From positions 36,394,001 through 36,458,000 of the forward strand of contig CM114271.1 in assembly GCA_050084515.1 (NCBI GenBank): 64,000 bases of DNA, in the 5' to 3' direction. The DNA comes from Blasia pusilla. Taxonomy: Eukaryota. A program made the translations under genes and the position numbers. Positions within the stretch are counted from its first letter, which is position 1, and each line of letters begins with the position of its first letter. This document shows positions 25,547 to 63,740 of this stretch, one piece after another. The notes beneath the pieces were generated by a model. That model was not told where the DNA came from, ran no database searches, and saw only the letters and a program-made list of their open reading frames with translations.

Positions 25547-28500
25547 TGTCACATTTGAGTAGCTGATAGGTCAAGATCTATCGTGGATAGGGAGTAGGAT
25601 CCAGCGGACTATCTTGAGTGTAACTTTGTCCCACGGTTTCGGATGAGGTTGAGGATAGGTCCATTGTGTCAGGAACGTCGTTTCTGAGAACTTTCCTATT
25701 GAGGTCTTTCACAGCCGGGTGACTTGTTAATCAGGTCACCCGCCACTAGTAACTTGTGCGTGCAGGTTACCAAGGGGATGGCTATTTTTGGGAGAAGAGC
25801 CTTTTGGCTCTTCCCACCACTATATAAGAGAGGAAGATGGCTTTCCTAAGCCATCTTTCTCATGTTGGGCTGTTGGAGCACCTCTCTTGTATGTGTGTGA
25901 GATAGGACTAGGATGCTAGCGTCCGAATTCCTTGATAGCACAGGGTGGATAAGGCTCGATATGTCGATGTAGATTGAAGAGTGGAGTTTTAGGCTAGGTG
26001 TGTCGTTTTTACTACTCTTTATTTTTATATGAGAAAGATACGGGTGCGGGCCATTTTGGATCCCCCCATATGATGTGGTTGGGAGCGCCATGGTTGGCAA
26101 CGTCCCAACGTGGTACACACCGGATGTGGTAGGTATGGACGTGGTTAGTCAGACGGACATAGTGAGGCAAGGTCGACTTGGTAGAGGCGCGGGTAATGTC
26201 GTAGATGGGCTGACATGGTTGAGTTCAGACGGAGTTGAGTAAGATTACGGGATGCGTGTGGGGATGGGCGGAGAGGTTTGCGTGACATGATATTTTTTGG
26301 GCTTGAGTGGGATTTGCGAGTAGGGTTTCACGCTGATCTTGTGGGAGGTTTGACATGTGTGCAAGGAGGTGGTTGTGCTATGGAGGTTGTCATGCCACAC
26401 GTATGGAGTGAGTGTTGAGAGTACGTAGGTTGGAGGGCGTAATCAGGTTACCCATTCGAGTCCCTTTTCCCGCACTTGTCGTGTGTGATTGAGAGTGTTG
26501 GGTATCAGGTAGTAGGTGATGCTAGATGGATGCACTGATGGTGACGAGTGTAGACACTTTTCATGTGTAGCATGTTGGTGGATCTACGGCGGTTGCCGAG
26601 TAGGGGTCGCGTGTATGACTTGAGAGGGTGTCGCTAGGTTAGGTGAGTTAGTTGGGATGCTCATGGTGAGCCCGAGTGTTGAGTGTACGTGAGGTCGGGT
26701 GTGTCATCACGGGATTGACGTTAGCATAGATAAGCTAGTGAGGATTGTGAGAGACTCTCGGTGAGTCTAAGTTCTTGAGCGGGTGAGACAAGGTTGTCAT
26801 CACGGCGTTCTTCCAGGGTTCGAAAGAACAGGGTTGTGCGAGCAGTAGTAGTGGTGTGACACAGAGTGGACTGAGATATCGAAGGGTTACGAGTGAGGAG
26901 CTACCTCGACATCCATCCGTGGCTGAATCATCATAACTAGAGACCGTGTTTGGTGACGAGATCGTAGACGGAGGCAGTATCACTTGGCAGGAGATGGACA
27001 ACATGGGCCATCGAGGATTACGTAGTTTCTCAGGTGCAGTGGGCATCATCGACTTAGATGATTTTATCCAGGAGTTTGACACGTGGTGCAACTTCCAGGA
27101 GATACGAACCCCGACACACTTCAGCCCTTTCATGGCATGGAAGGGGTTGTTCCAGCACTTGGAGGGTCCTCCGATGGATGATTATATGGAGTTTTGATCA
27201 CTTTATTCAGTAGAGATTGATGCCTGGAGGATATATTGGGCTCTACGGTATGTGTCCACTAGTGGTCGCGAGGTATATGATGGGATCATGAGAGGAGAGA
27301 GACCCACCCCATGAGCCCGGAGACTAGATGGAGAGGAGGGCGTGAGGCGATGTGGCGAGAGACCTCTGGTGGTAGAGGGTGGCACAGTGGAGTTCTTCCG
27401 AGCTTGGGGAAGAGCTACAGTATGCACTGTGACAAGTGAAGAGTCTACAAGATTTTTAGCAATGATCGGGTGAGAGTGAGAGAGGCATTCACGCCCATGA
27501 GGAGGTGATCATTTCTATGTATGGAGGAGTGAGGCGTAAGTTAGTCCAAGATTGGATGCGGGGTTCTAGACCGAGAACACAGAGGAGAGTCCAAGATACG
27601 GTGGTCGATTCACAAATGGGCCCACATTGAAGGTGGTCTTTGAGTTGTTAGCGTATTGAGCTCAACATGAGTGTAGGTAGTGACCGCTAGATTTTCTGAG
27701 AGTCGAGACGGGTTGACCCCATAGGTGCCACAACGAGCACCAATACCACGGAGTGGGCCAGTGTGCCTAGAGAGAAGGCGGGTACCGTGAGCCTATGAGG
27801 CAACGGACATATGTTGTGTGGAGGGGTAGGCAGAGAGAGCGCCCACAACATGGGAGAGGACCATGAGCGCCTCGATTGCGAGTGCGGGTGTCTATTGCCA
27901 TAGATATGGTCACACTAGGGATAGATGTTTTGACCTTTGCCAAGAGGCACGCCCAGAGGTAGGCCGAGGGGGGGCGGTCATCTAGAGGAGGTCGGGAGTT
28001 CTTCTTAGGCGTGGTGGTTGTGGGAGATGGAGCAGAGCACCACAACCGACACTTCTCTCACATCGATCGGTTGGTGGGGAGGATTTTGCCATGAAGATGA
28101 TGTCGGGAAAGGCGGAGCCAGCGGCTAGTGTGGCTCTAGCTTCTGGACCGGGTGAGGATCTTGCATTAAACTCGAGGTTGAGGTGGTCGGTGATGACTTG
28201 GGGTGTTGAGAGGCAACCGAGCCCGAGAGGTGGAGTTGAGATCCTACGTTAGGTCATTCACATTGAGCTAGAGTATTTCGCTTGGTTAGTCCGATGGAGA
28301 CAAGATCGGTCGCCCTACTTGATTTGGGGGTGATATTAGGGAAGGCGGCGTGTCTAGCGTTGGGGTTACGGAAGGCCGACATTGAGCCTTGTCCCTTCCA
28401 GATACACACCTCTATTGGGGGTGTATCACCCACGTAGTATATGACTTGAGAGGAGATAGTTGTCAGAGTCCATCCAGAGCGTGCGACCGATAGTGCTATG

Positions 28501-31779: not shown

Positions 31780-33513
31780 AAGTACTCGGGACGTTCCCCA
31801 TTGAGTCATGGCATGCGACGGCGGCAAAGTTGGTAGATTTTCCAGCTCGACGGGCTATAGAGAGAGCCATGATCACACTAATTGTGGTATTGTTGGCTAA
31901 TCGAGTAGGAGTGTTTCGCTTGGTTAGTCCCATAGGTACGGTGTACCACCCGCAACGCGTCCTACTTGATTTGGGAGTGCAACCCTTGATGTTAAGGAAA
32001 GTGGCGTGTTTGGCGTTGGGTTTACAAAAGGGTGACATTGAGCGTTGTCCCTTTCATATACAGACCTCTATTGGGGGCGTATAACCCACGCAGTACATGA
32101 CTCAATAGAAGTTGGTGGTTAGACTTCAGCCAGAGTATGAGTCGGATAGTGCGATGGTGCACACTTGGGAGACTACAACATCGACAGAGTCGTATGATGT
32201 GTTGGTAGGGAGTATAGTGTTATATCCCCTTGGTTTCATTCTGGATTTTTGGGAGAAGATGCTTTCTTATCCGCCAGGGTAGCGATCAGGTGATGGACGG
32301 GTGAGCCATTTACCGGTGCTGTTTGCAGGAGTTAGTGGTGGTTGACCGCATGAGGATACGGTGACCACGTTGGCAGCATTCATAGGTGGTGTTCGCTGAT
32401 CATGAGGGTTTGGGGAGAGGAACACACATGCGGAAGACATTCCCATAGCGAATAGTCCCACGGAGAGACATGCTAGGGTGGATGTCTCTTCCCATGGTGA
32501 AGAGCTTCTTTATTATTTTTGGGGACGAGCGTTGAGATGCGTTGAGTGCAGATGAGCTCGTGAGGCAGGCGTGGAGCCGTGCCAATGTCTAGAGCAGGGT
32601 ACAAGAGTGTAAGATCTCTCCGGAGGGATCAACATGACGGGTTGCTGCAGTGTGGTAGTGTTGGGGGGATGACGGCACCGATGGTGCTAGATGTGTATAG
32701 GATAGTAGATCTTGTCGGGTACATATGTATGTGCTATCTGGAGCTAGGAGGACCCAACTGCCAGATAGAGGGGCGGTTTTGAGACTCGGTGTATATACGT
32801 GAGTATATTTGGTTTATGTGTGGATCTACTCGTATGTTGGGGAAGATCGGTGTTGTGTGTTGTGTAGATGTGACAAGCGATGTGGGTTGTGTAGCAATGT
32901 GTATGCGCACAATAGCTGTCACATCTTATTTCGACATAGATAGAGTTCTATTGCGTCGACGACATAGAGAGTCAGCGGGCTGTTCGGGTGTAACTTTGCC
33001 TCGAGATGTCGGATGAGGTTGGCGACAGGTCTGTTGTGTCGGGAAAATTGTTTATGGAGATTTCCCTATTTTGGTTTTATTCCGTTAGGTGATCTGTTGA
33101 CACATAGGTTGCCGTTGGTAGGGCTATTTTTGGGAGAAGAGCCTTTTGGCTCTTCCCAAGGGTATAAGAGTGAGGAAGATGGCTTTTCCGAGCCATCTTT
33201 CTCATGTTTAGCCTTAGGAGCACCTCTCTTGCATAGATGTGTGTGGGTGTGTAGGAGTTAGGGTGCTAGCATCCGGATTCCCTCATAGCAGTGGGTGGAT
33301 GTGGTTTGATATGCCAATGTAGATTCATGAGTGGAGTTTTAGGTCGGATGAGCCATTTTTACTACTCTTCATTTTAAGTTGTAGGACTCGGTGTATATGC
33401 CTGAGTATATTTGGTTTATGTGTGGATCTATCCCTATGTCGGGGAAAATCAGTGTATTGTGGTGTGTAGATGTGACCAGCGATGTGGGTTGTGTAGCGAT
33501 GTGTATGCGCACA
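31780..33513 (+). mobile_element. Degenerate internally deleted Ty3/Gypsy element, family 2, 3' part: protease region, PHD remnant, PPT, then A-B-A terminal repeats
   Basis: VFRLVSP..RVLLDLGVQPLML (protease region); possible PHD remnant LLQCGS..RHRWC..YICMC at ~32608-32735. PPT GATAGAGGGGCGGT 32764-32777; A 32778-32911, B 32917-33377, A 33380-33513. Confidence 0.8.
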
Positions 33514-34399
33514 ATATAGCTCTTTGCATGTAAAATTCCATAAGTATTAGATGTGGGCATAGGTTCTCTTAGATGAATGTGGAACCCACATGATGATGTA
33601 TGAATATTATTATGTGGATTCCACATTTCAAAATGTGGAACCCACATAATAATAGTTCATGGTGGAAAGCAACGCAAGGGTGGGCAAAACAATAAGGGGG
33701 AAGGGAGTGGAGGTAGGAGGAGGAAGAAACAAGAAAGTGTGGATCATGAAGGGAAGTGAGGAGGATGGGAAAGAAGGGGGAGATGGGGCCCACATGGACA
33801 AGTTCTTCTATAGGACGAACATAAGTCCACGTACATGGACATGTAAGCGTACACGTATGTAGACAGGAATTTTGTCTATATGCAATCTTGTAAATAGATG
33901 TTAGAAGAAATTTTTTTTAATGAATTTCTGAAATTTTTAAAGCTGAACACTTGTAAGTTATAATTTTAGAAAATTGATCCAATTCATTATATCGGCAACA
34001 ATTTCTCTATCATAGAATTTTATGAACATTTTTTGTTCATCATATAAATATGAATTTACACATTCCATAGAATCCCATATAAAAGTTCTTTTATGCTTAT
34101 ATGTATCTTTTGATAGAAAATAGATCATACCATTGATCTTGAAGTGCTAATATGTTTAAAATAATCTTTTTAAATGTATAAGAAAATTGATCATATCATT
34201 ATTATCATCGCTGAGTGCCTCTTTGATTTTCAATCTCCTCTCTGGTTTCACACATAACATTTTTAGAAAATCAAGTCTTGATACATATCCTTGGATAATT
34301 CAGAGTCAGTAATGGGGGCACTCAAGTTAGGGATCAAGGTTGATTTGGGGTAACTCACACCATAGAGACGCCCTTCTCAAAGTGGTCTAGGGCACTTAA

Positions 34400-42700: not shown

Positions 42701-43364
42701 TTAAGAGCGAACATTCATTGGATAATTGTTGGGTTGTACCTTACAATCCGATGTTATGCACCCTATTTGATTGTCACATTAATTTGGAGATTACAAGTAG
42801 TGTTTCTGCTGTCAAGTACTTATACAAATATGTTTATAAAGGATCTGATGTCGTGTCATTTAAGTTGTTAAAGCATATGGATACATCCAATGTAATCAAA
42901 GTTATTGACGAGACAACGTCATATCTTGATGCGAGGTATGATTTTATGGATTGACTTCTCTGATGCATTATATTTTATTTCTCAACTTCATGTAATTATG
43001 GAAGAGTCCTTCTCATGTAATTTCTCACTCAAATACTTGGAATTCTCATTATTCCAGATATATATCTTCTTCGGAAGCATGTTGGCGTCTCTTTAAGTTT
43101 AGTCTACATGTTGAACTTCCAAGTATCGTACGACTAGCAATCCATCTTCCAGAACAACAATTAGTCTACTTCAATGATGTTGACGCTCCTAGAGATATTT
43201 TGCAACTGAAAAGAGAGACAACATTGACCCAATGGTTTGCGACCAATCTATCTGACTCTAGTGCTCGAAAATATCTATACATAGATTTTCCTTTTTATTA
43301 TCGTTGGAGTAACAAGAGATGGATTCGTAGGGTACAAAAACAAAATGGTTGTGGCCATCCCATT
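39800..43364 (+). pseudogene. Helitron RepHel gene, 5' half (Zn-finger, Helitron-like N, HUH Rep domain), intron-containing, frameshifted
   Basis: CPSCRALHW..CCGHG; PQFAQLYIHD; ILPSSFIGGPRHM; FLTMTCNPKW; VEFQKRGLPHVHVL (HUH); YLYKYVYKG (Y2). Cut at ...CGHPI by the Gypsy insertion. Confidence 0.93.
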
Positions 43365-43942
43365 TGTCGTGCGAATCCCCATCGTCATACAACATACATC
43401 GCTGACATACCATACTCACATACATACATAACATAGACGAGAGTATCCACAAACGCAAGTGTACCACAATTGAAACCGTGAAAGACCATGTCATAAAACA
43501 CGTTTACAATCACATACAATCGAGCCAAACCCACTCCACGATGGGAGAATCTAGGTCTAAGCTTATGGAAACACCATAGCCAAGAGCTCTACTCACTACC
43601 AAGGCTAACTCCCAACGCAATGAGGCTCAACTCAAAGAAGTGATCGTTCTTTGAGGGCAAGCCACCTTATATCCTCCAACCTAAGAGCGGGCCCCACTGG
43701 GAAAGTCACCCCAAGTGAGTAACCCACAACCCTATGTATGGAACCGCATCTCTACCAAGCCACTACGGTCCTACATAAGTAATGGCCTCTACCAAAGACT
43801 ATATACTCTACGACATAATCCGTATGGTCATGACAAATTTGTCGGCGAATCCCCATCGTCATACAACATACATCACGACATACCATACTCACATACATAC
43901 ATAACATAGACGCAGAGTATCCACAAACGCAAGTGTACCACA
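43365..43942 (-). repeat. 3' terminal repeat block: A (43942-43840), AATT, B (43835-43471), AT, A (43468-43365)
   Basis: The two A copies (~103 bp) are near-identical; B (~365 bp) matches 52278-52643. PPT AGAAGGGGGCGAGT (43956-43943) abuts the first A. Confidence 0.92.
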
Positions 43943-44120
43943 ACTCGCCCCCTTCTGGCGGTTAGGTCCTCTAACTCCCAAGTAGCCCTATACATCTACT
44001 ACATGCTATACACCTTCTTGGGTGCCCGAATCAGAAGGCCGGGTGCTAGGTTGCCCCATCGTTAGTCGCACATCCGTAATCCATATCATGCAAAGATCAA
44101 GTCATCTACCTCTCCTAAGT

Positions 44121-44257
44121 ACATCGAGGACAAACCCACCTTCCAAAAGAGGAACAACATCCAAACGTGAGTCAAACACATCATGTGCCAACCCCTAGAA
44201 CACCGATCACACACCAACATACGGGTGCGTTACAAGAGACCCACACAACATGCACCT
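44121..44257 (-). pseudogene. PHD finger at the C-terminus of pol (frameshifted)
   Basis: Reconstructed RCMLCG...MLVCDRCSRGWHMMCLT..LDVVP..GRWVCPRC (C4HC3 spacing). Confidence 0.8.
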
Positions 44258-44449
44258 CAAGCTAGCACATATCATGGCTAAGCTTGGGTCAATGAACCAT
44301 CCACATTTGGAAGATGACATGGCGCACAATTACGCACATGGTCCTTCCAAACAACTCCATCACGACCCTCCAACATGAGAACTCCGAAGCTAACACCTCA
44401 CGCACTCGTAAAATAGTGCGGCCTGCCGTCACATCCAACGTTGTCGGGC

Positions 44450-45420
44450 ACCGCTGCAAATAGACATAGTCCCCACATGGAACCTACGAATCGATGGTCG
44501 ATAACCTCCACTTCGAATGGTTGCATACCGCAACCTATCCCTCGTGTTGAGCAATGGCAAGATTCTCAAAGGTCGTTGGTATAACTCTCCGAAAGAGCTC
44601 CGCCCGCGAGAACACACTCTCATCCATATCTCTCGGGTCATCAAGGTCCACCACCTCACTAGACTCGACTAATTGCTCTTTGGCAAGTCCGGATCTCGGC
44701 CGATAACAGTAAAATAAGGTGAGAAGGAAGCCAAGGATGCTTGGCGATCGAACCTATACCCCATGGCTAACCATGGCAACCGAATATCCGGTCTCCAAGA
44801 TGCCCTTCAGAGGCCATACTTGCGCAATGCCCTCTTCACCGCCTGAACCACACGCTCAACCAAACCATCCGCCTCTGGATGATCTCGAGACGTGGTCCGA
44901 TGATCAATCAACGCCTTGTCACACAAGACCTGAAACTCACCCAAACTCAGACTCGGTCGGTCAAGACTTCAATTTGGTGCACCAAAATGACTAAGCACTC
45001 TATCCAGAACGCATACGCCGTTCCTCACTTGCATTGTCCGTAATGCCACCAACTCAATCCACTTGGAGAAGTGCTCCACCATCACCAACACATATCGATG
45101 ATGTCGCATAGTCAATGGTAACGGTCCCCAAAGTCCACACTCCAACGGTAACCCAACCCCATAATAGGCAAGGGGTGTAATTGTGGTATAGGGGCATTAA
45201 ATGATGCCTCACCAGTCACAAACCATACAACGTGACACCAATCGCTGCACCGAGTATGCATGCCACGCCACCAATATCGCCAAGGAGTAAGCTATACGCA
45301 CGCTTTACCCCAAAATGTCCCAACTCCTCATGGGCTTGTCGCACAATGCGCTCTCTCGAGCCAAATGTGGCACTACTCGTACTCTACCATCCTCCCACAT
45401 ACGGAGAATATGTGTTCCCT
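44450..45420 (-). pseudogene. Retroviral-type integrase (frameshifted)
   Basis: Fragments HEELGHFGVKR.YSL, WSVDF.GPLPL..HRYVLVMVEHFSKWIELVAL, DH.TTSRDHPEADG, AQHEDRLRYA. Confidence 0.85.
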
Positions 45421-45699: not shown

Positions 45700-46960
45700 A
45701 TCTAGCCCCAGCTTGTATCCTCTTGGCTAGTACATGGGTTCCTACTCAACCCATCAAGATCAAGGTTGGCAACCAGGTCTATGTACCACTTGGAAGTCAT
45801 ACTCTTGTAAGATAAGAGCCCACCGTGCAAGCTTCCCCTGTAAGCTTGTCCGACTCCATCAACCACTTGAGCGGTGGTGATCAAGAATAAGGGTAAATCG
45901 TGTGCCAAACAAGTAACACCTAAAGTGTGCTCTGACCCACACTCTCGCCAAGCACTCTCCCTCATATGAACTATAGCGCGACTCCGTTGCATTATTCGAA
46001 CGACTTGCATAGGCCACCACAAACTCCATGTGCTCATCATCATGTTGTGTCAACACCGCTCCAAGTCCCAACCTACTCCAATCAATGTGTAACTGAAATG
46101 GGCGCCCTCTGATAGGTCTCCTCAAGATAGGCGCCGCCACCAATTGGGCCTTAAGCTCCCCAAAAGCTCTCTCCTGATCATCTCCCCAATGCCACTCTTG
46201 ATCTGATTTCAGCAATTGGTTCAAAGGCTTTGCCATAGCACTAAATCCCTTCACATACCTCCGATAGTAGTTCGCCAATCCCATGAATGCTCGAACTCTA
46301 CTCACATCTACCGGACGCGGAATAAGTGCAATAGCGTCCACCTTTGCTTGCTGAACTCCCAAACCACCTGGATAGATCACATGACCCAAGTACTCAACAT
46401 CCTCATGGAAGAACTTACACTTTCCTGGATGCAAACGTAGACCATGAGCTTTCAACCGCTCAAACACCATCTGCAAATGTATCCGATGCTCCTCCACCGT
46501 GTTATCGAACACCAAGATATCATCAATGTAACACCGAACAAAATCCAACCTTGCTAGGATCCCGCCCATCACTCTTTGAAACTCGGCAGGTGCATTCTTC
46601 AACCCAAAGGGTAAGAATTCCCATTGGTACAAACAATCCTTGCCATGAGAGTTGACACCCCAAAATGTTGTCTTGGCCTTGTCACTCTCCCGAATTGGCA
46701 ATTGATGGTATCCTGCCCGAAGATCCAAAATCTGAAAATCTTTGCCTGTCCCACCACATCAAAGATCTCTCAGTGTAGGCATGGCATACCTATCGGCCTT
46801 AGTTTGCCGATTGATAGGACGGTAATCTCCACACATCCGCCTATCCGTAGTTGCCATGCATATCCTTTTTAGCAGCATGACAAAGGGCGATGCATACTCT
46901 CCATGCGACAACTCCACTAATCCGGCCTCCAAAAGGTCCAACGCCCTACTCAATCAGGTC
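45700..46960 (-). pseudogene. Reverse transcriptase + RNase H (Ty3/Gypsy type)
   Basis: RRMCGDYRPIN, DLRAGYHQL, LPFGLKNAPAEFQR, CYIDDIL, YLGHVI, FQLHIDWS..GLGAVL, YASR..ESRYSSYEGE. Confidence 0.95.
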
Positions 46961-47449
46961 CCTCTCCATATCACTATATTGGTAGGGACGACGGAAGTTT
47001 GGCGTATCACTAGCCAAATCAATCCGTGATATCTGTGGTCCAACCAAAGAACCCAACTCCTTCATGCTAAAGGCAAAACAACTCCTATAAGCACGTAGGA
47101 ACGTGTCAGCGCCGTTTCTCACCTCCCGTAAGCTTGGGCCCAAGTAATGGCTCCCAAGTCTCCTCCACTTTGGCATACTAGAGGGAGAGGACGATGCCAT
47201 TGGCTACACGCAACCCCTCACAAGATGATACACCCTTAGCTACACCATCATCCGAGCAAATAACTCCTCCACCAAAGATGAGCAACCAACTCCACATGCC
47301 CAACCATTACATCCCATTTACTCCAAGGATGCAAAATACTACTCTCTCGCCCCACCGATGCCTCTATCGCCCCGGTAGCCATCGAGCTCATTACAAGGGG
47401 TGGAAGACCTGACATAGTCCGAAGTCGACGTATTTGCTCGGCCATACCA

Positions 47450-48410
47450 AGACTCAAAATCCAAGTCAAACAATTCAGGTCCATGGCCTGACCCAACACA
47501 TGACGTCGTGAAGACTCAGAAATAGAAGCAACCGTTGTCACGCCAGTAGTAAATCCCATCGCACGCTCTCTCTCATCATCAGCGTTAGGCTCCACCAACG
47601 CCGCACATGAGAATCCCATACAAGCCCGGACCACCTTCCCGTAGGCATGACGCGGGAAAACTCACAAATGTGGGTAGTGCCATCCTAGGCTGGCCCACAC
47701 GGTTCACCACTGCCATGGGTGACCGATCAATAACCCTCACCACTTGAGAAAGTCGCCCAGTATCCAAGATACTATCCACTGTAAGGCGAGGATCCCGTTA
47801 ATCGCATCATATGCTCGACGAGAACCTCCCTAGGCAACAAGTTTGTCCACCACAAGCGTGGGCGATGTGCACGCTGAGCCAACTTCGCTGCAGATCCAAC
47901 AACACCTGGTCCAATCCAAGACCGCACCTCATGAACACTCGCCATCATCCGGGTCCGAGTCTCACCTAACAATGGAACATTCTCGAATGTAAGCTAGAGC
48001 ACGTGCTTGATGAGCTCAAGATGTCGTAACACCCGTAACATCTCCCAAAACAATCGAGACCTAGGGTCATGTAATCCCTCACCATGACCAAAGACGTGTA
48101 TGACCGACATGGCCATCCAAAGCAATCACCAAATCCACAGGACCAACCCTCTCAAGGTCCTGCGCTCAACAATGCAATGTGTGATGGTAAAGCACGCTGG
48201 TACCCACAAATAGCCGATGGCGGCAACAACTCAGATATCTCCGCATCAATCGACCAATATGTCGGGATGAGACTCTCGGGCCGTCTCATCTTGCTCCACA
48301 TACACGTATCTCCAAGACAGAATACCGCCCGCACATCTTGCCGCCAAACCGGTGCTAATCCCACCAAAGAGATCTAACACACAAATGCCCTCCGGCGGAT
48401 AACGCCATAC
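47450..48410 (-). pseudogene. DNMT3-like C5 cytosine methyltransferase domain inside pol (frameshifted)
   Basis: Motif I VLDLFGGI; IV DLVIA.GWPC (48107-48118); GL.DPRSRLFWEMLRVL; VI ENV (47976-47984); VIII AHRPRLWWTNLLP; IX/X ERERAMGFTTGVT...RRHVLGQAMDL. Confidence 0.88.
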
Positions 48411-48849
48411 AATGGGTGTAGTATCCAAAGGGGATAACCTAATCGGGCTGTAGTAGGAGTCCGTGGGGCCTCCTCTTCCTTGTGAGGTATAAGACCTCAC
48501 ACCAAGCCTCTGCACTAGGCGATCAGCCTCCTACCGTAGTGTACCGCTTTGAACTCCAAAGTGGCACATCCAACGATGAGGATGCCACCGCTGCAAAAAT
48601 AGGGACCTCTCTCTACCTCCTCATGCAGGAGAATCCAGCGTAAACATTACCTTCCAAAAAGTCTCCGGCCAAGTGACTACTCCACTAAAACCAACCACAG
48701 ATGCTAACACCTTTGTTGGGGAAGACCCTCCGGTCGAGCCCCGAAATAAATCTCACAGAACTTGGCTCATACGTCCATCCTCGGATCGCCAACCTGGTCT
48801 ATAAGACGTTGTCTCACCCAAGAATCCATCTGAAAACCCATCGGGTACA

Positions 48850-51300
48850 CATCGCTCCTCCAACTAGTACATCATACGACTCGGCCGATGTGACTATCGA
48901 GATACTCCCAACCGGAGCTATCGATCGCATGATCTGGTCTCAAATGCATAAAAAACTCTCTCGTGTCATGAATTGAGACCTATCATTGGCTCCTCCAAGT
49001 GATGTTTGAATCTGGAATGGGCAAGGCTCAAGCTCGACCTCCGAATACCCAAACCAATACATGCCGCTTTCCCAACATCAAAGGTCGGGCACTGAGTCTA
49101 ACAAGACTCTATCTGGTCTATACACTGTCTGTAGGACTCACCAATCGGAAGATCCCACTCCGGTTGTCCAACATACATACACCAGGTGTAAGCCTCTCAC
49201 GATCAATGGCTGGCCGGGTGGTAATGCATCCATCTTCGCCGCGCCGCCGCCAAGTAGCACCGGTACTCAATGCTACTCCCGACATAGAAGGTCGCTCCAC
49301 CGCAACATCCTCATCCACCTCAACACGTGCAAGAAACACCCCACGTTCACACAATGTGGTCGCTAGCTGAAATACAGAGCTAAGTCAACTCCTAGAGCCA
49401 TCGCCCGTGGGTTAAAACAATGGGGATCCCAACACCGGTTGCCATCCGCACATCGCACTTTCGATCTTCGCATCCATGTCTACTACACGCGATGTAGATG
49501 CCTCAGTCCCCACTGTCGGCTCAATAGGCTGCGTAGGAACCATGGATGGAGTCCTAAGCACCTCAGACAACAAGAATGACTGGGGAAGCCTAGCCTGCCT
49601 CCCAGCCTCACCCCTCTGTGGGTCCAACTCCACAAGAGCACCACGTGGCTCGACGCTTTCGAGTGGCTCCTCTCGAATCGCAGGTGATGCCTCAATGTGT
49701 GTGCCGACTCGCCATATAAGAGAGATCATCCCTCCATAAGAGGTGGAAGCCCTCGCTCCCAAACCGATCGATCTATGCCGCATACCACCCATAGTAGCCA
49801 ACTCTCGCTCCAATCTGCTCAATCCTGGCAGCCATAGCTGACTCTGTCGTAGTGGTAGGGGTAGCCACCGTAGGCTCTCCAACCACTGGTCCACCTCTAC
49901 CACCCCTACCACCTCTACCACCTCGGCCTCTCGGAGCTACTCCACCACGGCCACGGCCTGATCTCAACTCTGGATGAAGATCAAAGCAACGCTCTCAAGG
50001 ATGACCTAGTCTCCCGCAATGATCACACTGAGTTGGGGCCGACTGAGGCCCATCCTCCAAAGTCCGTCTCCCATCCTCTTGGGGACAAAACTTCCTAACA
50101 TGATCACCTCCACATGTCCAACATGATCGCCCTTTGCTGGGGCAGCAAATGAAGGCAATGGTCTCTGCACAAATGTCCCTCTAGGACTTGACTGAGGTCG
50201 CGTGTACCCCCCACGACTCCCACTACTACTACCACCACCACTACTACAAGACTGTGAGGTGGGCGGCTGAACACGAGAAGTAGTAGTTGTATCCCTACTG
50301 AATGCGGATGTCACCACTCTCTCCTTCACCATGTTAAGCTCAATCTTCTCAGATAGAGCAAACACATGGGTCAATGTGGGTGAATCATCACTCATAAGAG
50401 TAGCATCACGTACCCTACGGCGCAAATCTCTGTCCAAGATCCCATACCAAAACTGGATTGCCTGATCCTCAATCACACCCTGGGTAATTGAAATCAAGCA
50501 TCGCATATGCGTGTATGCCTCACGAAGACTCTCACCAGTCTTTCGCTCAAAGTCCTGAAGATTCCTCAACTTCTCCGTCTTCACTCCTTGATAGTTCTTC
50601 TTCAACCTCTTGAAGAACTCTGCAACCGGGCTAAACGATGGTGGGGCACTAGTACCTCCACTAGTACCCCACTAGTACCTCCACTGGTACCCCCACTCCG
50701 ACTCGCACTGCACCACTCGGCGTCGGGCCGGGCCGGGCATAGTAGGAGCACTACTACCAATACCACCATGGGTGATAGACACATAGCCGGAGACCAATAT
50801 TGTCTCCATGCCTCAATCTCAGCAACATGGTCCTTCCTAAACTCATGGTAATCATCCATGGGTGGTCCTTCCAAGTTTGAAACAACCCCTTCCAAGCCAA
50901 GAAGGGTGTAAACAACGCATGCTCCGCAACATCCGCATATCACACCACGTATCAAACTCCTGCATGAAGTCCTCCAACTCAATGGTACCCACTTTGCACC
51001 GAGTATCGTCGTGGGCCCTTCATGGCCCCATATCCACCGTCCATGTCCCAAATCAATGGAGCGCAACACTCGATAACAACGTAGAAGACTCGGTGTTTGG
51101 AACACCTCGCCCTCCTCCTCTTCATCAACCGTCGGAAGTGGAAAAAGTAGCCGATACCTAAATCCACTCTGTGTGAAACCACCATCGTCCGCACCACGGT
51201 CCCCAACCAGACCACCCGACAAACTCGTGATGACCAACGCCGATGCCGCATCACCACCAAATTACCCAAGTGACGTCGATGTCGCTCTACTATTGTAGCT
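48850..51300 (-). pseudogene. gag (with zinc-knuckle remnants) and aspartic protease
   Basis: LEGPPMDDYHEF, ERKTGESLREAY, RG-rich tract, RVLLDS.ARPLMLGK (protease active site, ~49070-49110), YDVLVG. Confidence 0.8.
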
Positions 51301-52277
51301 CTACTAGCTATGGGTGTAGGCAACCTAACCTCTCATCACCACAAGAAGACTCCCACGGTCTACTGGTCATCACTCCAGCCTCACTATCAGTAGCACACAG
51401 GAGTAACACTACTATGGAAATCAACGTCAACCCTAACAATGGGCGCGCAAGCAAGAAGCACAATGGAGGGGATCCAAACACAGGAAATCCAACGACAACC
51501 CTCCAATCGCAAATGGAAATCAAGGTTACACAATCCACCAAACGTGGTGCCCTCTGAATCCACAAAACCCACCACACAATTCTAACGCAATAGCTACTCC
51601 GCCGCGGGTCGATGACGTGCTAGTCAAACTCGCACCATCTGAAAATATCACCTGCATGGAGAGGCTACACCGTACTATGCGCTAGAGGTACATCAACCAA
51701 AAACCTGAGATGCATAAAGTGCCTAACACCTCTCCGAACAGCACCAAATGAGCTACAATAGTCTGTACACTGGCATAGTTAAGAACTCAGCAGTTAAGCG
51801 TCCTCCAAACAGAATAGCCCAAAGATGGGTGACCAGTTATGCAAAACTCAAATCGTGCAAAAATTGCCTCACGCCCAAGCAAGCAAGCTTGCTTGCTTGC
51901 TCCTTGCTCCTTGCTCCTTACTCCGCCTCTCACGCCCACTCGCCCCGAGCTACCACGAGTTGCCTCGAAGCCTCGAAGCCTCGAAGCCTCAAAACCTCAA
52001 AACACCGAGACATGCCCCTATCGCCCCGTTCGCCACGCTTCGCCATGCTTCGCTATGGAGAGAGGTCCAACCAGGGCGCCCCCAACGGGATAGGCGTCTC
52101 CAACAATGAACAGGTCACCAACCAACCAGCCCCTCCGATCCGCTGTCCACCATAGCCAAACCTTGAGCTAGTCCGCGAAACTGGTGCGAACATCCACAGC
52201 TGAGTACACAATCAGCCCTAACCAGATCCTACTGATCTACAATCGAAGCTACCATCGATCTACTCCAGTTCTTTGAG

Positions 52278-52643
52278 TGAAATCCGTGAAAGACCTATTG
52301 TCATAAAACACGTTTACAATCACATACAATCGAGCCAAACCCACTCCACGATGGGAGAATCTAGGTCGAAGCTTGCGGGAAACACCATAGCCAAGAGCTC
52401 TACTCACTACCAAGGCTAACTCCCAACGCAACAGGCTCAACTCAAAGAACTGACTGTTCTTTGAGGGCAAGCCACCTTATATCCTCCAACCTAAGAGCGG
52501 GCCCTACTGGGAAAGTCACCCCCAAGTGAGTAACCCCCAACCCTATGTATGGAACCGCATCTCTACCAAACCACTACGGTCCTACATAAGGAATGGCCTC
52601 TACCAGCACTATACTCTACAACATAATCCGTATGGTCATGACA
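52278..52643 (-). repeat. 5' terminal repeat: B segment only, containing the TATA box (52481-52476)
   Basis: Near-identical to 43471-43835; lacks the A segment. Confidence 0.92.
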
Positions 52644-55003
52644 CATTGGTCGCTTATACCTTACTCATCCAGGTAAATGCTCACAACTTCTTTGTACATA
52701 ATTCCTTTTATATTCCACCTCTAAAGTAGTGTATCTATATGTTGGGATAAACTCATTTAGTTTAATTCCTCATAGGTGAAGGAGAACGTCATTGGTTGAG
52801 ATTACTTCTCCATCATGTTCGAGGAGCAACTATCTATGAATGTTTGAGAACTGTTAATGGGATATTATGTCCAACATTCAAGGAGGCTTCTATCCAATTG
52901 GGACTTCTTGAGGATGATAGGGAAGTGTTCTCTTGCTTTGAAGAAGCTTCTACAATTCGTACAGGTTCTTCACTTCGTCGCCTATTTGCAATTATTCTAG
53001 CGTACAACACACCTGCTCAACCTGCAACACTTTGGAGTCAACTCTTGGCTCCAATGGTAGAAGATCTCTTATATGAACGGCGTCTGGTAAGAATTCATTA
53101 ATACCCTTGCATATTTTTTTTATTCTTAATAGTATCTTCTATTGAGCATTCAACAGTCTAACAAATTTTGGGTTATCATCTTATTTTGTAGAAAATTGGA
53201 ATTCCTAATCTTCTCGTTGAAGATGCTATGGTTAATACTGCATTGTTGGAAGTCCATTATTATTTACAAGATCAAGGAAAAAGACTGTCAGACTTTCCAG
53301 ACATGCCCCAACCTGGCTTCCAACGACTTCAATTAAATTTATATTTGGAGGAACAAGAGCTTTTGTATGATACGGAAGAACTATTTGAGCAAGTGCAATT
53401 AGGAGAAGCATTTTTAAATGAAGGACAACGGATTATTTGGGATGCTATAGATGATGAGTTTGATAAAATATGCTTGGATGCTCCACCATCTCCAAAAGTC
53501 TTTTTCATTGATAGCCCAGGTGGAACGGGAAAAACATTTTTATATAATCTTCTTCTTGCAAGTGTAAGGAGTGCAAGAGGTATAGCTTTGGCTGTGGCGT
53601 CATCTGGAATAGCTGCTCTATTGTTAGACGGAGGACGTACTGCACATTCGCGATTCAAAATCCCCATAAATCTTCATGAGAGCTCTACTTGCAAACAAGT
53701 GCCAATTCTGGTGATGCAAAATTTTTAATTTCCTCCAATTCTGGTGGCACAAGTTCTAATTTACTCCCCTTTTCTTACTATAGTTTGTCGGTTAATAGTG
53801 ATGGAGCGCGCTTAATCCGTGATGCAATGCTTATTATATGGGATGAAGCTCCTATGGCTCATCGTCACCCATTTGAGGCTGTAAATCGGACTTTACAAGA
53901 TATTATGGGAGTTATTTTTTATGAACACCGACAATTACCATTTGGTGGAAAACTTATGGTATTTGGTGGTGATTTTCGTCAAGTGTTGCATGTTGTTCGT
54001 CATGGGGATCGGCCGCAAATCATCCAAGCCACCATAAAGAGGTCATCTCTTTGGTCTAATGTAAAGGTCATGAAGTTGACTACAAACATGCGAGTTCAGA
54101 CGTTGGAAGGTCACTTGCGTAGTGAACAACAAGCTTTTGCTGATTGGTTATTAGAAGTGGGAGAGGGTCGCGTACCTTTGCATCCACATTTGGGAGAAAA
54201 TTTTATACAATTACCATCTGAAATTGTTACTAGAAGTAATAAGATATGTGATCTTATTGATTTGATATATCGAAATTTTCCATCCGAAGTCAATGACATT
54301 GATTTCTTGAGAGATACGGCAATTTTGACTCTAAGAAATCAAGATGTAGATGACATAAATGCAAGCATAATGTCACGGTTTCCAAGAGAGATAATCCTTT
54401 TAACTTTTATAAAAGAGTTATTCAATTATAAGTTTAGATATTAATATTACCGTTTCTTACAAACTCATTATATTTTGTGTACAGGAGCAAGTTTACCTCA
54501 GCGTCGACTCTATTCCAAACGAGGGGATGACTCATAGATATCCAACTGAATTTTTGAACACATGCTTGCCTTCAGGACTTCCTCCGCACCGATTGTGTTT
54601 GAAGATTGGGGGACCAATCATGCTGTTACGAAATATGAATGGAGCACATGGACAAGCAAACGGGACAAGATTGGTGATTCATGGATTTATGCAACATTGC
54701 ATAGATGCTGAAATTGTCACAGGGAAAAATATTGGAGATCGAATTTTTGTTCCACGTATCCCATTGATTGCATCACATTCAGATTTGCCATTTGATTTAC
54801 GTAGGTTTCAATTCCCTATTTGACCGGCTTTTGCTATGACTATCAATAAGTCCCAAGGTCAAACTTTGCAAAAGGTGGGCATTTACTTGCCTACTCCAAT
54901 ATTTTCTCATGGCCAATTGTATGTACCATTATCTAGAGTAGGGAAGAGAAGTTCTATCCAGATTATAATTGGAAGCGAAGATTACTATATAAAAAATTCT
55001 TAA
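52644..55003 (+). pseudogene. Helitron RepHel gene, 3' half (PIF1 helicase), intron-containing, premature stop at 54821-54823
   Basis: SPGGTGKT (Walker A), ASSGIAA, GGRTAHSRFKIP, IIWDEAPM, FGGDFRQ, NGTRL, FPI*PAFAMTINKSQGQT, FSHGQLYV.LSRV. Confidence 0.93.
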
Positions 55004-55022: not shown

Positions 55023-58000
55023 TTAGATCAAATTTTTTTTTCCTTTCGACGGGTCCGGGCGACTCGGCCGGTTATCAGAAAGAAACGACTGTTTGGCCGT
55101 CTTCTCCGCGTCCTTGGCCGGTTCGGAGATGTAAGAAATCCACGAGTGATGGTTCTGGTTGGGAATAACTTTCTCCACTACCATCGTCGACAGTCGCTTT
55201 GACGATTCGAGATCGATCAGAAGGTCGGCTGCGTAGGTGGGCCTCAGTCCGATCACATTAAGGTATTTTAGGTTTGGGAGTCGGGAAAGTTTAGGTCTTT
55301 CGCCATTCTCTTCTGTCAGTTGTGTGCACCAACTCATCGACAGGCGCCTGAGCGATTTCAAATTCTCGATCTCTTTCGGCAGACTCTGTAGTTGGAAACA
55401 GTGATTCATGTCCAAATTCTGCAGGTTTTTCAGTCTCCCGATCCCTCTGGGCAGATTTCGAAGTTTCCAGCAAGCCAAGAGGTTGAGTTTTTGGAGAGTC
55501 TCTAGCTCGCAAATCTCGGTTGGTAGACACTCCAAGGAGGTGCACCATTGAAGGTCCAGGTGCTTCAACTTGTGGAAGATCTGCATTTGTGACGGGAGCC
55601 TTTCGAGATTGCTACAGAAGTCCAGACTGATGAGGCTGACGTTACTGAAAGCGACTATGCTCGATGGCAGACATGTCATACTGTGGCAGTCGTTGATGAT
55701 AAGCTCCTTCAAAGCTAGACACTCCGCAGTATCCTTAGCTCTGGGATCGGTGAAGCGGCCATGGGGCTCTTCAAGCACCTGGCCTACCAACTTCGGGCAG
55801 GACAACAGCTCCAGTGTTGTCAAATTCTCGAGCTTGTAAACGAATTCGGGTATGTATTCCAGATCTGCGCTAAGTTGGATGGATAGTTTCGAAAGGGTTG
55901 CATTCGGTCGTTGAATTGGTAAGTCGTATAGATTATCGCAAGCTTGCAGATGCAGAGAAGTTATGGATTCCGATCGAAAGATGGATGGAGCAGCTTGCCT
56001 GAGGTTTGTGCATCCAATCAAAGAAAGGCTCGCTAAATGACGAGGCACCTGCGTCACAAGCGTTCGAGTTAGTGTTAACAGAGGAGTCCTTACAGCTATA
56101 AATTGTTCATCGCATTCACATCTATAATGTGAATGCGATAAACATTCACATCGATAATGTGAATGCGATAAACATTCACATCCATAATGTGGATCTTATC
56201 CGGATCCCGGATGTATAGCGAAGTGTAGATACACTTAGTCTAAGGGTAGAGATGGGCAGTCCGTAATTCCATGAGCATCCAAACCCTCATTAACCCTCAA
56301 CATTTCCTCCGCTTGAAGAATTGGACTCTGCTGTCGAATTCAGCCCACCTACTACATGTGTGATGAACAAATTCACAAAGAACGAGTGCTTTTGTATAGT
56401 AGAAAACTGACCTAGATTGACGAGTGCACACCTTCCTATTTCGACTGTTCAAACACGTTACCATTTGTAGCCCTGTTGTCAATTCCTGAATGTATGCTTA
56501 CGTAATCTGCAATGTGTTCGTCGATAAAAAATAGACCTCGTCTTTAGCGGTATGAGACGGATATTTCGTACCTGAAAAGCTGCAACTCCGAAGCTAAGGC
56601 CTGACAGGACCAAAACACTGAGATTTTCAAGATGCTCTGATCGGAACGGCAAGGACTGCGGTCGTGACTCTGAAGCTGGATTGCCGGTGCCAAAGTGGAG
56701 GAAACGGAGATCAGCCAGAGATCTGAAACTAGACCCGACCACCTCTGTTTTCTCGATAACGACGTAGCGCAACCCTTCAAGGTTTTCCATCCATTTCATT
56801 TCAAAAGGATTCTCGCAGTCTATTAGGCACAAGCTTCGGCAACTTCGCTTGACCTGAAATTCAAGAGATATCCGATCGGTCTCGAGTTAGTGTTTATTGT
56901 GTAGAGCTTGCAACGCGCACCTTCTTGTAAAATTAACGCTGCCAGCCCAGAAATGCTTTCACATGCACACTCAACGGTTGCAATCTTCAAAACGTATCCC
57001 AGTGCTTCCTCATGGGCAGAGTAGACGAGAAATGAGGGAGTCGAGGACCAGCACTGTAAATAGATGGATTCCACGGCAGTACTGTTCGCGATCTCGAGGA
57101 GGAATGGCCATCCGATTGATCTCCACCGTAGAATTGGGTGCAGGACTAAAATATATCTCGGTAACTGTTGCAAATTATGCGTGAGAATAGTGACAGACTG
57201 CGTTTGCAGATGACGTTTTCCAGTCTCTCAGTCCAGCACTCCAGAGTAATTGAATGTACGTACCCGGTTTCTAAGCTCCGTAAGCTGTTGAGGCATCGGG
57301 GACTCGACCGCATGTATATGGTGATCCCGATGGAGCTTACGACCGCTCTCAAGCATCTCGGGAGCAGCGAGCAGCACCTTCATCTTCCAAGGACCTGATC
57401 CGTAATTTCTAGTGATCTCAGCAAGGCGTGTCAAGGTTTGGGTTCCAATAATCTCCTTAGAGAGTATCACACGCTTATCTTTGAGTTCTTTGAGTACATG
57501 TCTCCCGAGTATGTTTTCGACTGTCCCCCAACTCCAGCCATTAAACACGTTTGCGATGTCTCCCATGGCTTCTTGGAGAAGTGATGATTCCAGTTTCCTA
57601 TTGAAGAGCAGTCCCATTTTCTCCACCAATCGGATATAAGCAACCTCCTGGGCTCGAGCGACCTCTTCCTTCACTCGATCCTCTACTTGTGTGAGAGTTG
57701 GTCCCCAGTCACGTTTAGCAATATCCTCGTCCACCGCAGCCAACTCTTCGCAAATGCGCTGCCAGACTGCCACCGGACGATCAATTTCGAAGTACTTCCC
57801 GAAGAAAAGGAGTAGCACAGGAAGACCCTCACACCTTGAGACCAGATCCTGCCAAGTGGTGCTCCGTGTGGATTCATCCGTGTGCCCTGGACCTTTGGTG
57901 TACTTCGAGATTAGCTCCTTGGCCTCGTAAAACTGCAGGCGGTCGACATGTAGGGGTTTGTAGACGCACGGGGAATCGGGAAGGTCTCGAAAGATGGCTT

Positions 58001-59841
58001 TAATATTTCGAAAGGCGGGACTAATTTTGAGGTCTTCATGTTCAAAATCACCCTCTACAGAGATCAACACACAACTTCCTTTCGGCAGATACTTCGAGAA
58101 ACTGTCAGGCAGCATCTGACTCAATAATCTTCCTTCTGCGATATTATCTAGGGCTAGAAGAACTTTCTGATCATCCCGTTTCCAAAATTGCGCATAGTCA
58201 ATGAGTTTCTGCTTGCCGACGTTGACGCTTGCAAGCCCCTCCGTGCTTACAGCATCCACCATCTGCTCAATAAGCTTTTTCTGCCACCATTGCACTAAGG
58301 GTTCTGAAGGATCATCCGTGCCTGAACGGCTGCAGTCGATTAAATAAGTCTTCGGGAAGTTCGAGAGCCGGACGAAAATTTCATTCAGCACTCGGCTTTT
58401 CCCGACTCCTCTGGCACCGTATAGGTACACAATCTGAATCTTACCATACTTTGACCCTGATTCCACAGCGCTCACAACTTTAGAAACGCCGTATCGTGTC
58501 TCCAGGCCCACTGTATCACCCTCAATGTGTGGCCGCACGTTACTGCGCGGCCGGGCTCGATCAGTTAATAATAAATTCAGACGAAACTTCTGCATCCTTC
58601 CCACGCAATCATCGATGTCCGCATCGTTGTCAGTCGCTGAAGCGTAATTGTGGAACAATCGTCTACTCCCCTGAATCCAATTGACACTGTGAGACCGTGA
58701 CGGAACTAGACACTCAACAAAATAGGGTCAGTGAGTCAAGTTCGAAGAAACCTTTGTGAGCGAGGATTCAATGTGTACTCAGGTAACCCTGGCTGGGGAC
58801 CATCTACTGTATATCTCATCCACAAGCTGAAGGGTAGTCAATGGTTTGAATTGCTTCAGCGACTACTATACTACTAAGCTCGATGACTGTTAAGTGCTCA
58901 TAGCGGACAGCTACTTTACTAGCCATTAAAAGTGCAAGACGACGTTTATACATTGCGACAAAAAACATGAAATTTCAAATGGTTTTGCGCGTGACCTGAT
59001 GCTTCGCTTCTCTTCCGCGTCCGACCTTACAACAACTGCGAAACAATGTGAGAAAAGTTCCACAGCTTCCTGATCTATGATTTGGCCATAGTCTGAATTA
59101 GAGATGAACCTAATTGCCATGTTTTTCTCGTAGTACTCAACAAGCTGCTCTGCTTCTTTCCTCAATCTAATCGCTTTCTCGCTCACAGCTTTCATAATTT
59201 TCATCCGGTCGTTTATCAAGAGGTAGATTTTGAATATAAGCCCGTACACGCCTAAATTGTCGGTTACAACAGTCAGCAACTCGTCTGCCACTGACTTCAG
59301 AGCAGAAGCGGTACTGCCCCGTGATTTGCCCTTCAAATCCAACAAGTACGGTCAATTTCACAGTCTACTTTCCAGCTTACATGCGACGGTCACCATAGAT
59401 GACAATCGGAGAAAATCCTAACCAGTGGCATTACACACAAATCGTACTGAACAATTACAGCATGTATACCATGACCACGCCACAATTCGGCGGATGTCCA
59501 GTCCTAGCTAGTATTTGATCACTCGTTAACCATCGGTATGCAGAGATCTCAGAAAGGAGCAAGTTTCAAATGCCATCAGATCACGAGGTTCAGACTGCAC
59601 ATGGAAACTAGTTTAACTGTAAGCACCGAGCAGCAGCATGGTACATGTATACCATAAATACCGCAGTACGTACCTCTCCATACTTTTCCATCGCCTTCAA
59701 TAATTTTTTCTCCTCATCTTCTGTTCCTCTGTGCTTTTCAATTTCGGGGGATACAGTATATGTTGAGGTGCTGTGAGTAGGATTTGGTCGTCCGCCATAG
59801 CCACGAAGCGAGTTTCCCTCGGATCTGCTAGTTGACGTCAT
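55023..59841 (-). CDS. NLR (NB-ARC-LRR) immune receptor with a non-TIR helical N-terminal domain. Exons approx. 59841-59674, 59417-59381, 59290-58996, (possible small exon ~58815-58752), ~58670-57264, 56853-56572, 56048-55023
   Basis: P-loop GARGVGKS, kinase-2 LLALDNI, CEGLPV, and plant LRRs (LxxLxLxxCxxLxxLP). The last three exons splice in phase 0; 5' exon joins are uncertain. Confidence 0.85.
56109..56192. repeat. Palindromic 30-bp minisatellite in an NLR intron
   Basis: cattcacatc(t/g/c)ataatgtgaatgcgataaa x~2.7; each unit is self-complementary. Confidence 0.9.
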
Positions 59842-63240: not shown

Positions 63241-63261
63241 TCCTCACATGAGTTGGTAGAG

Positions 63262-63740
63262 GGAAAAACTGCTCACCCTAACATATAACCCTAAAACCAG
63301 ATTGCAATGTTGCCAACAAACTAGTAAAGCCCACTTCAAGGAATCCAAGCTTCCAATGAGAGGCTCAGAAAACTTCGAACAAAGAGCAATGAGCACTGAG
63401 AGCAGCGAGGAGTAAACAGTAAACACAATGACAAGCCTGAAACGAGGCGCCGAGGACGAGCGAGCAACGAGGCGCCGAGGACGGCACACGAGCATGTGAG
63501 GAGATAGATAGAGTTTTTCCCTCTACCAAAGGAAAAACTGCTCACCCTAACAATACGAAAGGAAAAACCAGATTGCAATGCTGCCAACAAACTAGTAAAG
63601 CCCACTTCAAGGAATCCAAGCTACCAATGAGAGGCTCAAAAAACTTTTAACAAAGAGCAATGAGCACTGAGAGCAGCGAGGAGTAAACAGTAAACACAAT
63701 GACGAGCCTGAAACGAGGCGCCGAGGACGGCACACGAGCA
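63262..63740. repeat. Direct duplication (~210-230 bp x2) in the hAT 5' region
   Basis: ggaaaaactgctcaccctaaca...cctgaaacgaggcgccgaggacg at 63262 and 63531. Confidence 0.9.

Follow-up and report, generated by a model that had tools for sequence, protein, structure and literature searches.

The locus considered here raises two questions: how is a retroelement primed whose primer-binding site (PBS) forms the complement of its own predicted RNA start, and from which sequences do its integrated ends derive? The element lies on the minus strand of the window (the whole 64,000-nucleotide stretch of DNA analysed, from a 390 Mb genome), and the initial annotation described it as a Tf1-like, self-primed element whose PBS follows the CA end of a long terminal repeat (LTR). 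Two ordinary LTRs are absent from it; it has split repeats, A...B-A-B, instead.

Organization of the element and its copies

The element runs from 52643 to 43365 and is built A-PBS-internal-PPT-B-A-B (all its features are on the minus strand). Repeat A1 (365 bp, 52279..52643) opens with TGTCA, the 5' end of the element, upstream of which the flanks of different copies are unrelated, and comprises the promoter part, R and U5. It is followed by the 13-nt PBS (52266..52278), which begins where the identity between A1 and A2 stops. The internal part contains a gag-like region (50006..51261), recognized from its open reading frames (ORFs) and without a match in a Pfam search; a C5 cytosine methyltransferase-like region of Pol (47248..48530), assigned through a family-3 copy and relatives, the window pieces themselves having no Pfam match; reverse transcriptase (RT) and RNase H (45859..46758, identified by Pfam); a DDE integrase (approximate limits 44400..45330) with D, D and E visible; and a PHD finger at the integrase C-terminus (44086..44260), seen as a Cys/His piece. 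The gag, methyltransferase, integrase and PHD regions are broken here, and the coding region of this copy is interrupted in several frames. Downstream, the polypurine tract (PPT; 43946..43956) abuts repeat B1 (106 bp, 43840..43945), after which come a B/A spacer, AATT in this copy and the proposed integrase cut site (43836..43839), repeat A2 (43472..43835) and repeat B2 (43365..43471), whose final CGACA is the 3' end of the element. A1 and A2 are identical at 341 of 369 columns. The same four nucleotides, AATG, stand before A1 (52644..52647) and after B2 (43361..43364) as a target-site duplication (TSD). An LTR running from TGTCATGA to TTATGACA (52643-52299) was considered and rejected, since identity between copies extends 20 nt beyond it.

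The insertion is nested in a Helitron, with Helitron_like_N (41409-42587) and PIF1 helicase (53680-54444) on either side; the flanking Helitron regions span 41409-43436 and 52660-54444 on the plus strand, and a further PIF1 piece lies at 21185-22111. Elsewhere the window holds NB-ARC and LRR ORFs that are probably an immune receptor gene (55023-58727, minus), a glycosyl hydrolase 18 ORF (12771-14168, minus), a metallophosphoesterase piece (9310-9951, plus) and a zf-C17orf113 ORF (62511-63272, minus).

Clustering of RT sequences resolves families 1, 2 and 3 plus one distant copy, and a 17-nt gag motif has 2164 genome matches versus 4 for the control. The window element belongs to family 1. Family 2 is represented in the window by a comparator A1 on the plus strand (25547..26040; primer 25852-25865, PBS 26027-26040), the PBS of which is aged and has two mismatches in this copy, and a family-2-related 3' end, B1-A2-B2, occupies approximately 32769..33516 on the same strand. 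The split layout recurs throughout: of 40 family-1 3' ends scored, 39 have another B behind A, families 2 and 3 share the PPT-B-A-B structure, and in all three families B begins directly after a PPT ending in GGGGGCG. Around A1..B2 an exact 4-bp TSD is found in 17 pairs out of the 21 that could be evaluated (22 were tried, and one was scored from its second listed 5' flank), and a duplication of 3, 5 or 6 bp in none. A script sorted 70 A-only loci (20/40, 20/40 and 30/40 hits) into 38 flank-A-PBS, 20 B-A-B and 12 flank-A-B arrangements, three of the last being, by eye, B-A-B with an altered junction. The arrangement B-A-PBS occurs in none of these 70 loci and in none of 60 family-1 junctions, the two sets overlapping by 12. 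Six loci (L278, L250, L256, L257, L249 and L223) are solo A-B units with exact 4-bp duplications, which may stem from recombination between A1 and A2 or from small B-A circles that inserted directly. Three others (L014, L015 and L020) show family-1 5' ends arranged as a tandem of ~1036 bp, as well as copies that lie in the B-like sequence of other copies.

The B/A junction reads CGACA-NN-TGTCA. Its commonest spacer is GC (8 of 20), which also appears in 94-137 RNA reads per run (runs described below). We rejected the variable spacer as a repair footprint: GC, AC, AT and GT are all compatible with changes at a CAGCTG open to methylation, and GC is what the reads show. In one family-3 element (L243 and L244) the B1/A2 junction has the same 8 nt as the A1 host flank, a match that we attribute to conversion or assembly error. 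The integrated ends probably derive from the internal palindrome GACA-GC-TGTC at this junction.

As to kinship, the best solved relative of the window RT is that of Ty3 (4ol8, E 7.7e-52), and the gypsy order RT-RNase H-integrase is present. H2C2 and rve integrase domains are found in natural ORFs of other copies, in family 1 (L172) and family 3 (L198). A family-3 copy carries a C-terminal PHD finger (PF00628, E 1.1e-8), in an ORF from which a chromodomain is absent, and, upstream in Pol, a cytosine methyltransferase (PF00145, E 9.4e-9); PF00145 is also present in relatives, including the nearest, P0002, in the same domain order. At 72-81% identity, the nearest RT relatives belong to Calypogeia, Marchantia and Riccia (in the last, 41% of the query is covered), and the next to Klebsormidium and Closterium, which makes a liverwort the probable host. 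In a quick RT-RNase H tree of 116 rows, from which rows covering fewer than 270 query residues were left out, a 67-row clade (SH-aLRT 100) unites all four families, every DNMT- and PHD-bearing row and the Klebsormidium proteins; it excludes all chromodomain and Tf2-SH3 rows, the tree having no labelled Tf1 or Tcn1. The K. nitens proteins P0035 and P0067 fall inside the clade, which does not imply identity with the published copies of KnitGypsy-Dnmt3. The same clade holds the lone distant RT (L166, G000:C1:34116783-34118285), which shares 75% identity with a Calypogeia protein and 49% with family 1, and neither repeats nor a primer signature were found in 19 kb at that locus.

Priming of the minus strand

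A TATA-like box, TATAAG (52481-52476), stands 29 nt, start to start, ahead of CAGTTCTTTGAGT (52452-52440), which is predicted to form the first 12-13 nt of the RNA and to act as primer. Its perfect 13-nt complement, ACTCAAAGAACTG, occupies the PBS at 52278-52266, and a hairpin with a 10-bp stem (52465-52441; -14.2 kcal/mol as RNA) lies over the predicted +1. These features were all placed correctly in the initial annotation, and the family-2 hairpin that it mentions is likewise real, as is a family-2 complement.

Covariation, which had been suggested as a check, is found between families: three different primer/PBS pairs are each perfectly complementary. The sequence after A1 is ACTCAAAGAACTG in family 1, ACATGAGAAAGATG in family 2 and ACAAAGAGAGAATG(AG) in family 3, and each complements without mismatch a CA...GT stretch (pairing pattern CA...GT versus AC...TG). 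In families 1, 2 and 3, respectively, the duplex measures 13, 14 and 14-16 nt, the primer stretch begins 29, 29 and 30 nt after the start of the TATA-like box (a weak TATACC in family 3), and primer and PBS are spaced by 161, 161 and 160 nt. When the repeat was shuffled with dinucleotides preserved, an equally long complement anchored at the first PBS base arose in 0 of 5000 shuffles in each of the three families. At family-1 5' junctions the two 13-mers pair perfectly in 27 of 33, 10 of 12 and 6 of 15 cases, the first two samples having been picked for likeness to the window and the third by the gag motif.

The position of the duplex is equally informative. A1 and A2 diverge after ...GGATTTC, ...TTATTTTT and ...CTTACTTT in families 1, 2 and 3, and the duplex end coincides with the cDNA end in all three, exactly in family 2 and to within 1 nt in families 1 and 3. 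Since the right end of A lies away from the host junction, it would have to be set by minus-strand priming under the standard mechanism (excerpts of PMC7175516). The PBS does lie at the end of the repeat, as first described; what needs refining is the CA end of that repeat. The repeat stops at ...GGATTTC (52279), and when 5' and 3' repeat copies are compared, the A of this CA is PBS base 1, with a 1-nt ambiguity. In family 2 the PBS takes in all of ACA, and in family 3 it takes in the CA. The CA beside the PBS is no integrase attachment end.

Within family 1, variants at primer base 1 (52452) and PBS base 13 (52266) are compensatory, of similar frequency (~30-57% of reads) and unlinked. Such covariation (52452/52266; loci L025, L150 and L165) was not counted as support, because each of the two is a CAG/CTG site, at which the same change also occurs alone. 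About half of the reads belong to a subfamily that differs at 52452, 52466, 52470 and 52471.

Folding predictions give the primer:PBS duplex a pairing probability of 0.97, 0.90 and 0.43 in families 1, 2 and 3. In family 3 the fold favours a competing internal helix, and forcing the primer:PBS duplex costs 2.1 kcal/mol; this modelled preference for an internal partner would count against self-priming. The hairpins over the primer in families 2 and 3 differ in sequence (-22.4 and -19.1 kcal/mol). The idea that the hairpin blocks RNA started further upstream was discarded as a general rule, as it is true of family 2 only (predicted pairing 0.0); in families 1 and 3 pairing is 0.91 and 0.85 with 25 extra upstream nucleotides and 0.57 and 0.5 with 40.

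RNA data came from three Illumina runs of a related organism (X15-X17). In all three, sense reads span the whole of A and also run from B into A, and 3'-end transcripts dominate; over 52279-52647 the family is transcribed in sense, mostly from B-A 3' ends. Depth shows no step at the predicted start, 52452, and declines through R/U5. The absence of a step at this predicted transcription start site (TSS) is a point against self-priming that falls short of refuting it. In one run 29 read ends pile up at 52484; they were rejected as a TSS, being fragment ends beside a variant cluster.

With both sides weighed, we consider self-priming of this element likely, the start downstream of TATAAG being a predicted one. 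Self-priming in the manner of Tf1, as originally proposed, is well supported by the covariation between families, by the coincidence of duplex and cDNA ends and by PBS leftovers of at most 13 nt (see below); assignment to the Tf1 type of element is not.

Repeat seams and the route of integration

Most A/B seams are precise, which is also compatible with a templated seam. The exceptions are informative. When family 1 was searched for A/B seams starting with PBS-like sequence, 31 loci with 32 matches emerged, and these unusual seams comprise 21 single-base changes from CAG to CAC, two small variants, two other insertions and six PBS-like cases, five of them clean. The clean leftovers measure 12-13 nt twice, 11-12 nt once and 3-5 nt twice, and the sixth case is ambiguous. 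With 30 nt allowed, none of the leftover-PBS seams runs on into internal sequence, and the longest leftover, 12-13 nt, stops at the base pairing with the predicted +1. Flanks were fetched for 12 of the 31 loci: the two full-length leftovers are separate solo A-PBS-B insertions, each with its own 4-bp TSD, and two short leftovers are true A2/B2 seams. A deletion origin of the full-length leftovers would have to depend, two times over and at an identical position, on a single shared base. At three further loci, scored without an inverted-repeat control, the complement of U3 continues the PBS, as in a fold-back, one of them at an A/B seam with a TSD. Leftover PBS and fold-backs fit plus strands that copied an unremoved 12-13 nt primer and were then joined or folded back; the primer of Tf1 is not known to be removed. 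Two inverted insertions (L329 and L330) carry, after the PBS, antisense U3 as far as the element 5' end, and we read them as template switches at the 13-nt complement. The fold-back form also appears in one contig of run X2, single and at depth 5, and may there be a library artefact.

On balance we favour, with somewhat better than even confidence in the chain as a whole, a self-primed Ty3/gypsy-type retrotransposon that integrates from a circle. Transcription would start in A1, about 29 nt past the TATA-like box, and the first 12-14 nt of the RNA would pair with the PBS some 160 nt downstream. By analogy with Tf1, RNase H would cut after GU, and the released RNA would prime the minus strand at the boundary of A. 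Plus-strand synthesis from the PPT would then yield a linear B-A-internal-B-A, in which the true LTR is B+A. Joining of the two cDNA ends, to which the rare seams with leftover PBS point, would create the A/B seam, and the A2/B2 seam is accordingly proposed to be the end-to-end joint of the cDNA. The DDE integrase would make a staggered cut in both strands of GACA-GC-TGTC at the upstream B/A junction, leaving two CA-3' ends, with overhangs of 2 nt, that resemble processed retroviral ends; insertion with a 4-bp duplication would then give A-internal-B-A-B, which is the structure observed. In vitro, HIV-1 integrase is able to cleave a circle junction that is palindromic (excerpts of PMC1905944). 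The weak point of this model is that a two-LTR circle has two identical B/A sites, of which only the upstream one appears to be cut. A complex that remained at the cDNA ends and cut whichever site is closer (106-135 bp away from the seam versus 365-515 bp) is one guess at the reason.

The main rival, unlikely in our judgement, retains self-priming and has the A/B seam inherited: the transcript would read through B2, A2-B2 would template or splint the ends, much as proposed for DIRS/PAT-type elements, and the integrase would again cut at B/A. This would suit the precise seams of most copies as well as the read depth, which in the three runs is higher at the end of A (41, 27 and 39) than past the PBS (29, 13 and 24), and it might account for the use of a single B/A site. 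However, those seams that hold insertions or leftover PBS have the look of new products, and no A-to-B read-through was found among the loose read ends listed.

The self-priming component of the favoured model can itself be contested. A host small RNA, such as a tRNA half or fragment, might be the primer, with the R-PBS complement serving as a structural stem of the leader RNA; we regard this as quite improbable. Half-tRNA priming is on record in plant Ty1/copia lineages (excerpts of PMC6317226), and the tRNA sample (37 genes covering 16 anticodons, drawn from 40 of the 63 Rfam hits) is incomplete, being without Met and most isoacceptors; a motif search for tRNA-Met gave two loci, neither with a tRNA gene. 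Against it, the best anchored match among the 37 genes is 5 nt, which agrees with the early statement that no tRNA-like PBS is visible, and the PBS starts with TGG in none of the three families. These would need three unusual primers, each equal to the sequence at TATA+29, and the PBS leftovers end at 13 nt. Half-tRNA priming of this element is unlikely.

That the A-B-A-B layout arose through a tyrosine recombinase, or through later rearrangement of an ordinary LTR element, rather than from an integrase-cut circle, is very improbable. Split direct repeats do mark PAT, Toc, Ngaro and Viper (excerpts of PMC4157794), but here the layout is identical in three families and at most 3' ends, the 4-bp TSDs and TG...CA ends indicate a DDE integrase, and the ORFs scanned in one family-3 element (16 of 37 of at least 90 aa, the long ones included) contain no tyrosine recombinase domain. 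Chance or an assembly artefact as the source of the complement can practically be dismissed: the assembly does have many small changes at CAG/CTG sites, but the shuffles and the comparison of three families already refute chance, and Illumina RNA reads of the related organism span both motifs and the B-GC-A junction.

Comparison with known systems

The closest described element is KnitGypsy-Dnmt3 of Klebsormidium nitens (excerpts of PMC5890265), which shares the Gypsy domain set, a cytosine methyltransferase in Pol and A-coding-B-A-B repeats, the latter called 'the same as a DIRS retrotransposon' in a figure legend of 2018 (Fig. 4 of the same paper). PBS, primer, TSD, PHD finger and integration mechanism, described here, go without mention for KnitGypsy-Dnmt3 in those excerpts, and the present host, in contrast to Klebsormidium, is a land plant, with more than 2000 copies. 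In our literature search the name occurs in PMC5890265 only, and no priming or integration mechanism for this group was found within a coverage that excludes most subscription journals and Repbase Reports; the excerpts of PMC2864245 and PMC12344493 hold nothing on it. The end structure offers a testable mechanism for the 'DIRS repeats, Gypsy proteins' hybrid of 2018.

As in Tf1 of S. pombe, the PBS complements the predicted RNA 5' end, no tRNA primer is apparent and the primer is of similar size (excerpts of PMC7175516, PMC4600332 and PMC6317226); the Tf1 primer has 11 nt, RNase H cutting between base 11 and base 12 (excerpts of PMC7175516). Measured as Tf1 and Tcn1 are, by a complement of at least 10 nt in the 5' LTR to a PBS starting 0-5 nt after it, the three families have 13, 14 and 16 nt. 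Nevertheless, the element is no Tf1/sushi/Tcn1 chromovirus. Unlike those, it has a PHD finger in place of the chromodomain, a DNMT domain, a 12-14 nt duplex, a 4-bp TSD and an LTR layout of split repeats, and its primer-defined end differs from its integrated end. For Tcn1, a 5-bp TSD and a chromodomain are each reported in 100% (excerpts of PMC6317226). Phygy, in the same excerpts, resembles it as a non-chromovirus bryophyte gypsy of similar size with a 4-bp TSD, but is assigned tRNA-Trp (81%) and NCGN targets, whereas NCGN is found here in 0 of 17 TSDs. Troyka was considered and set aside, having ordinary LTRs, CG ends and a 3-bp TSD and being confined to animals (excerpts of PMC12440569). 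A plant survey names Tcn1 and TAR as the sole self-priming lineages (excerpts of PMC6317226). The present elements are likely a self-priming lineage outside that list, and a separate gypsy lineage of this kind would join the two.

The A1-B1-A2-B2 arrangement of split direct repeats is common to PAT/Toc/Kangaroo, Ngaro and Viper elements and, in the excerpts of PMC4157794, is described solely for tyrosine-recombinase elements. Unlike these, the present element combines it with a DDE integrase, a Ty3-like RT, a PPT, a PBS and a 4-bp TSD and shows no tyrosine recombinase in the ORFs scanned. Software searching for a pair of equal LTRs bounded by TSDs would probably annotate such ends wrongly, in elements that are abundant here and related to others of liverworts and streptophyte algae.

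The nearest parallel to the proposed cut is found at retroviral two-LTR circle junctions, where a palindrome is cut in a restriction-like manner by DDE integrase (excerpts of PMC1905944; compare PMC1180852 and PMC4372172). There the cut falls at the end-to-end seam and is a side reaction; here it would fall in a separate palindrome inside the LTR and be the normal route, a natural case, if the model holds, of an integrase normally acting on a circle. Whether these elements represent a widespread streptophyte LTR-type lineage, with reverse-transcription ends uncoupled from integration ends, self-priming independent of Tf1 and an obligatory two-LTR circle opened by a DDE integrase, in restriction-enzyme fashion, at an internal palindrome, we regard as evenly balanced. 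If so, a third integration route would stand beside those of the linear integrase substrate and the tyrosine recombinase, and what in retroviruses is almost a dead end, the two-LTR circle, would here be an obligatory intermediate.
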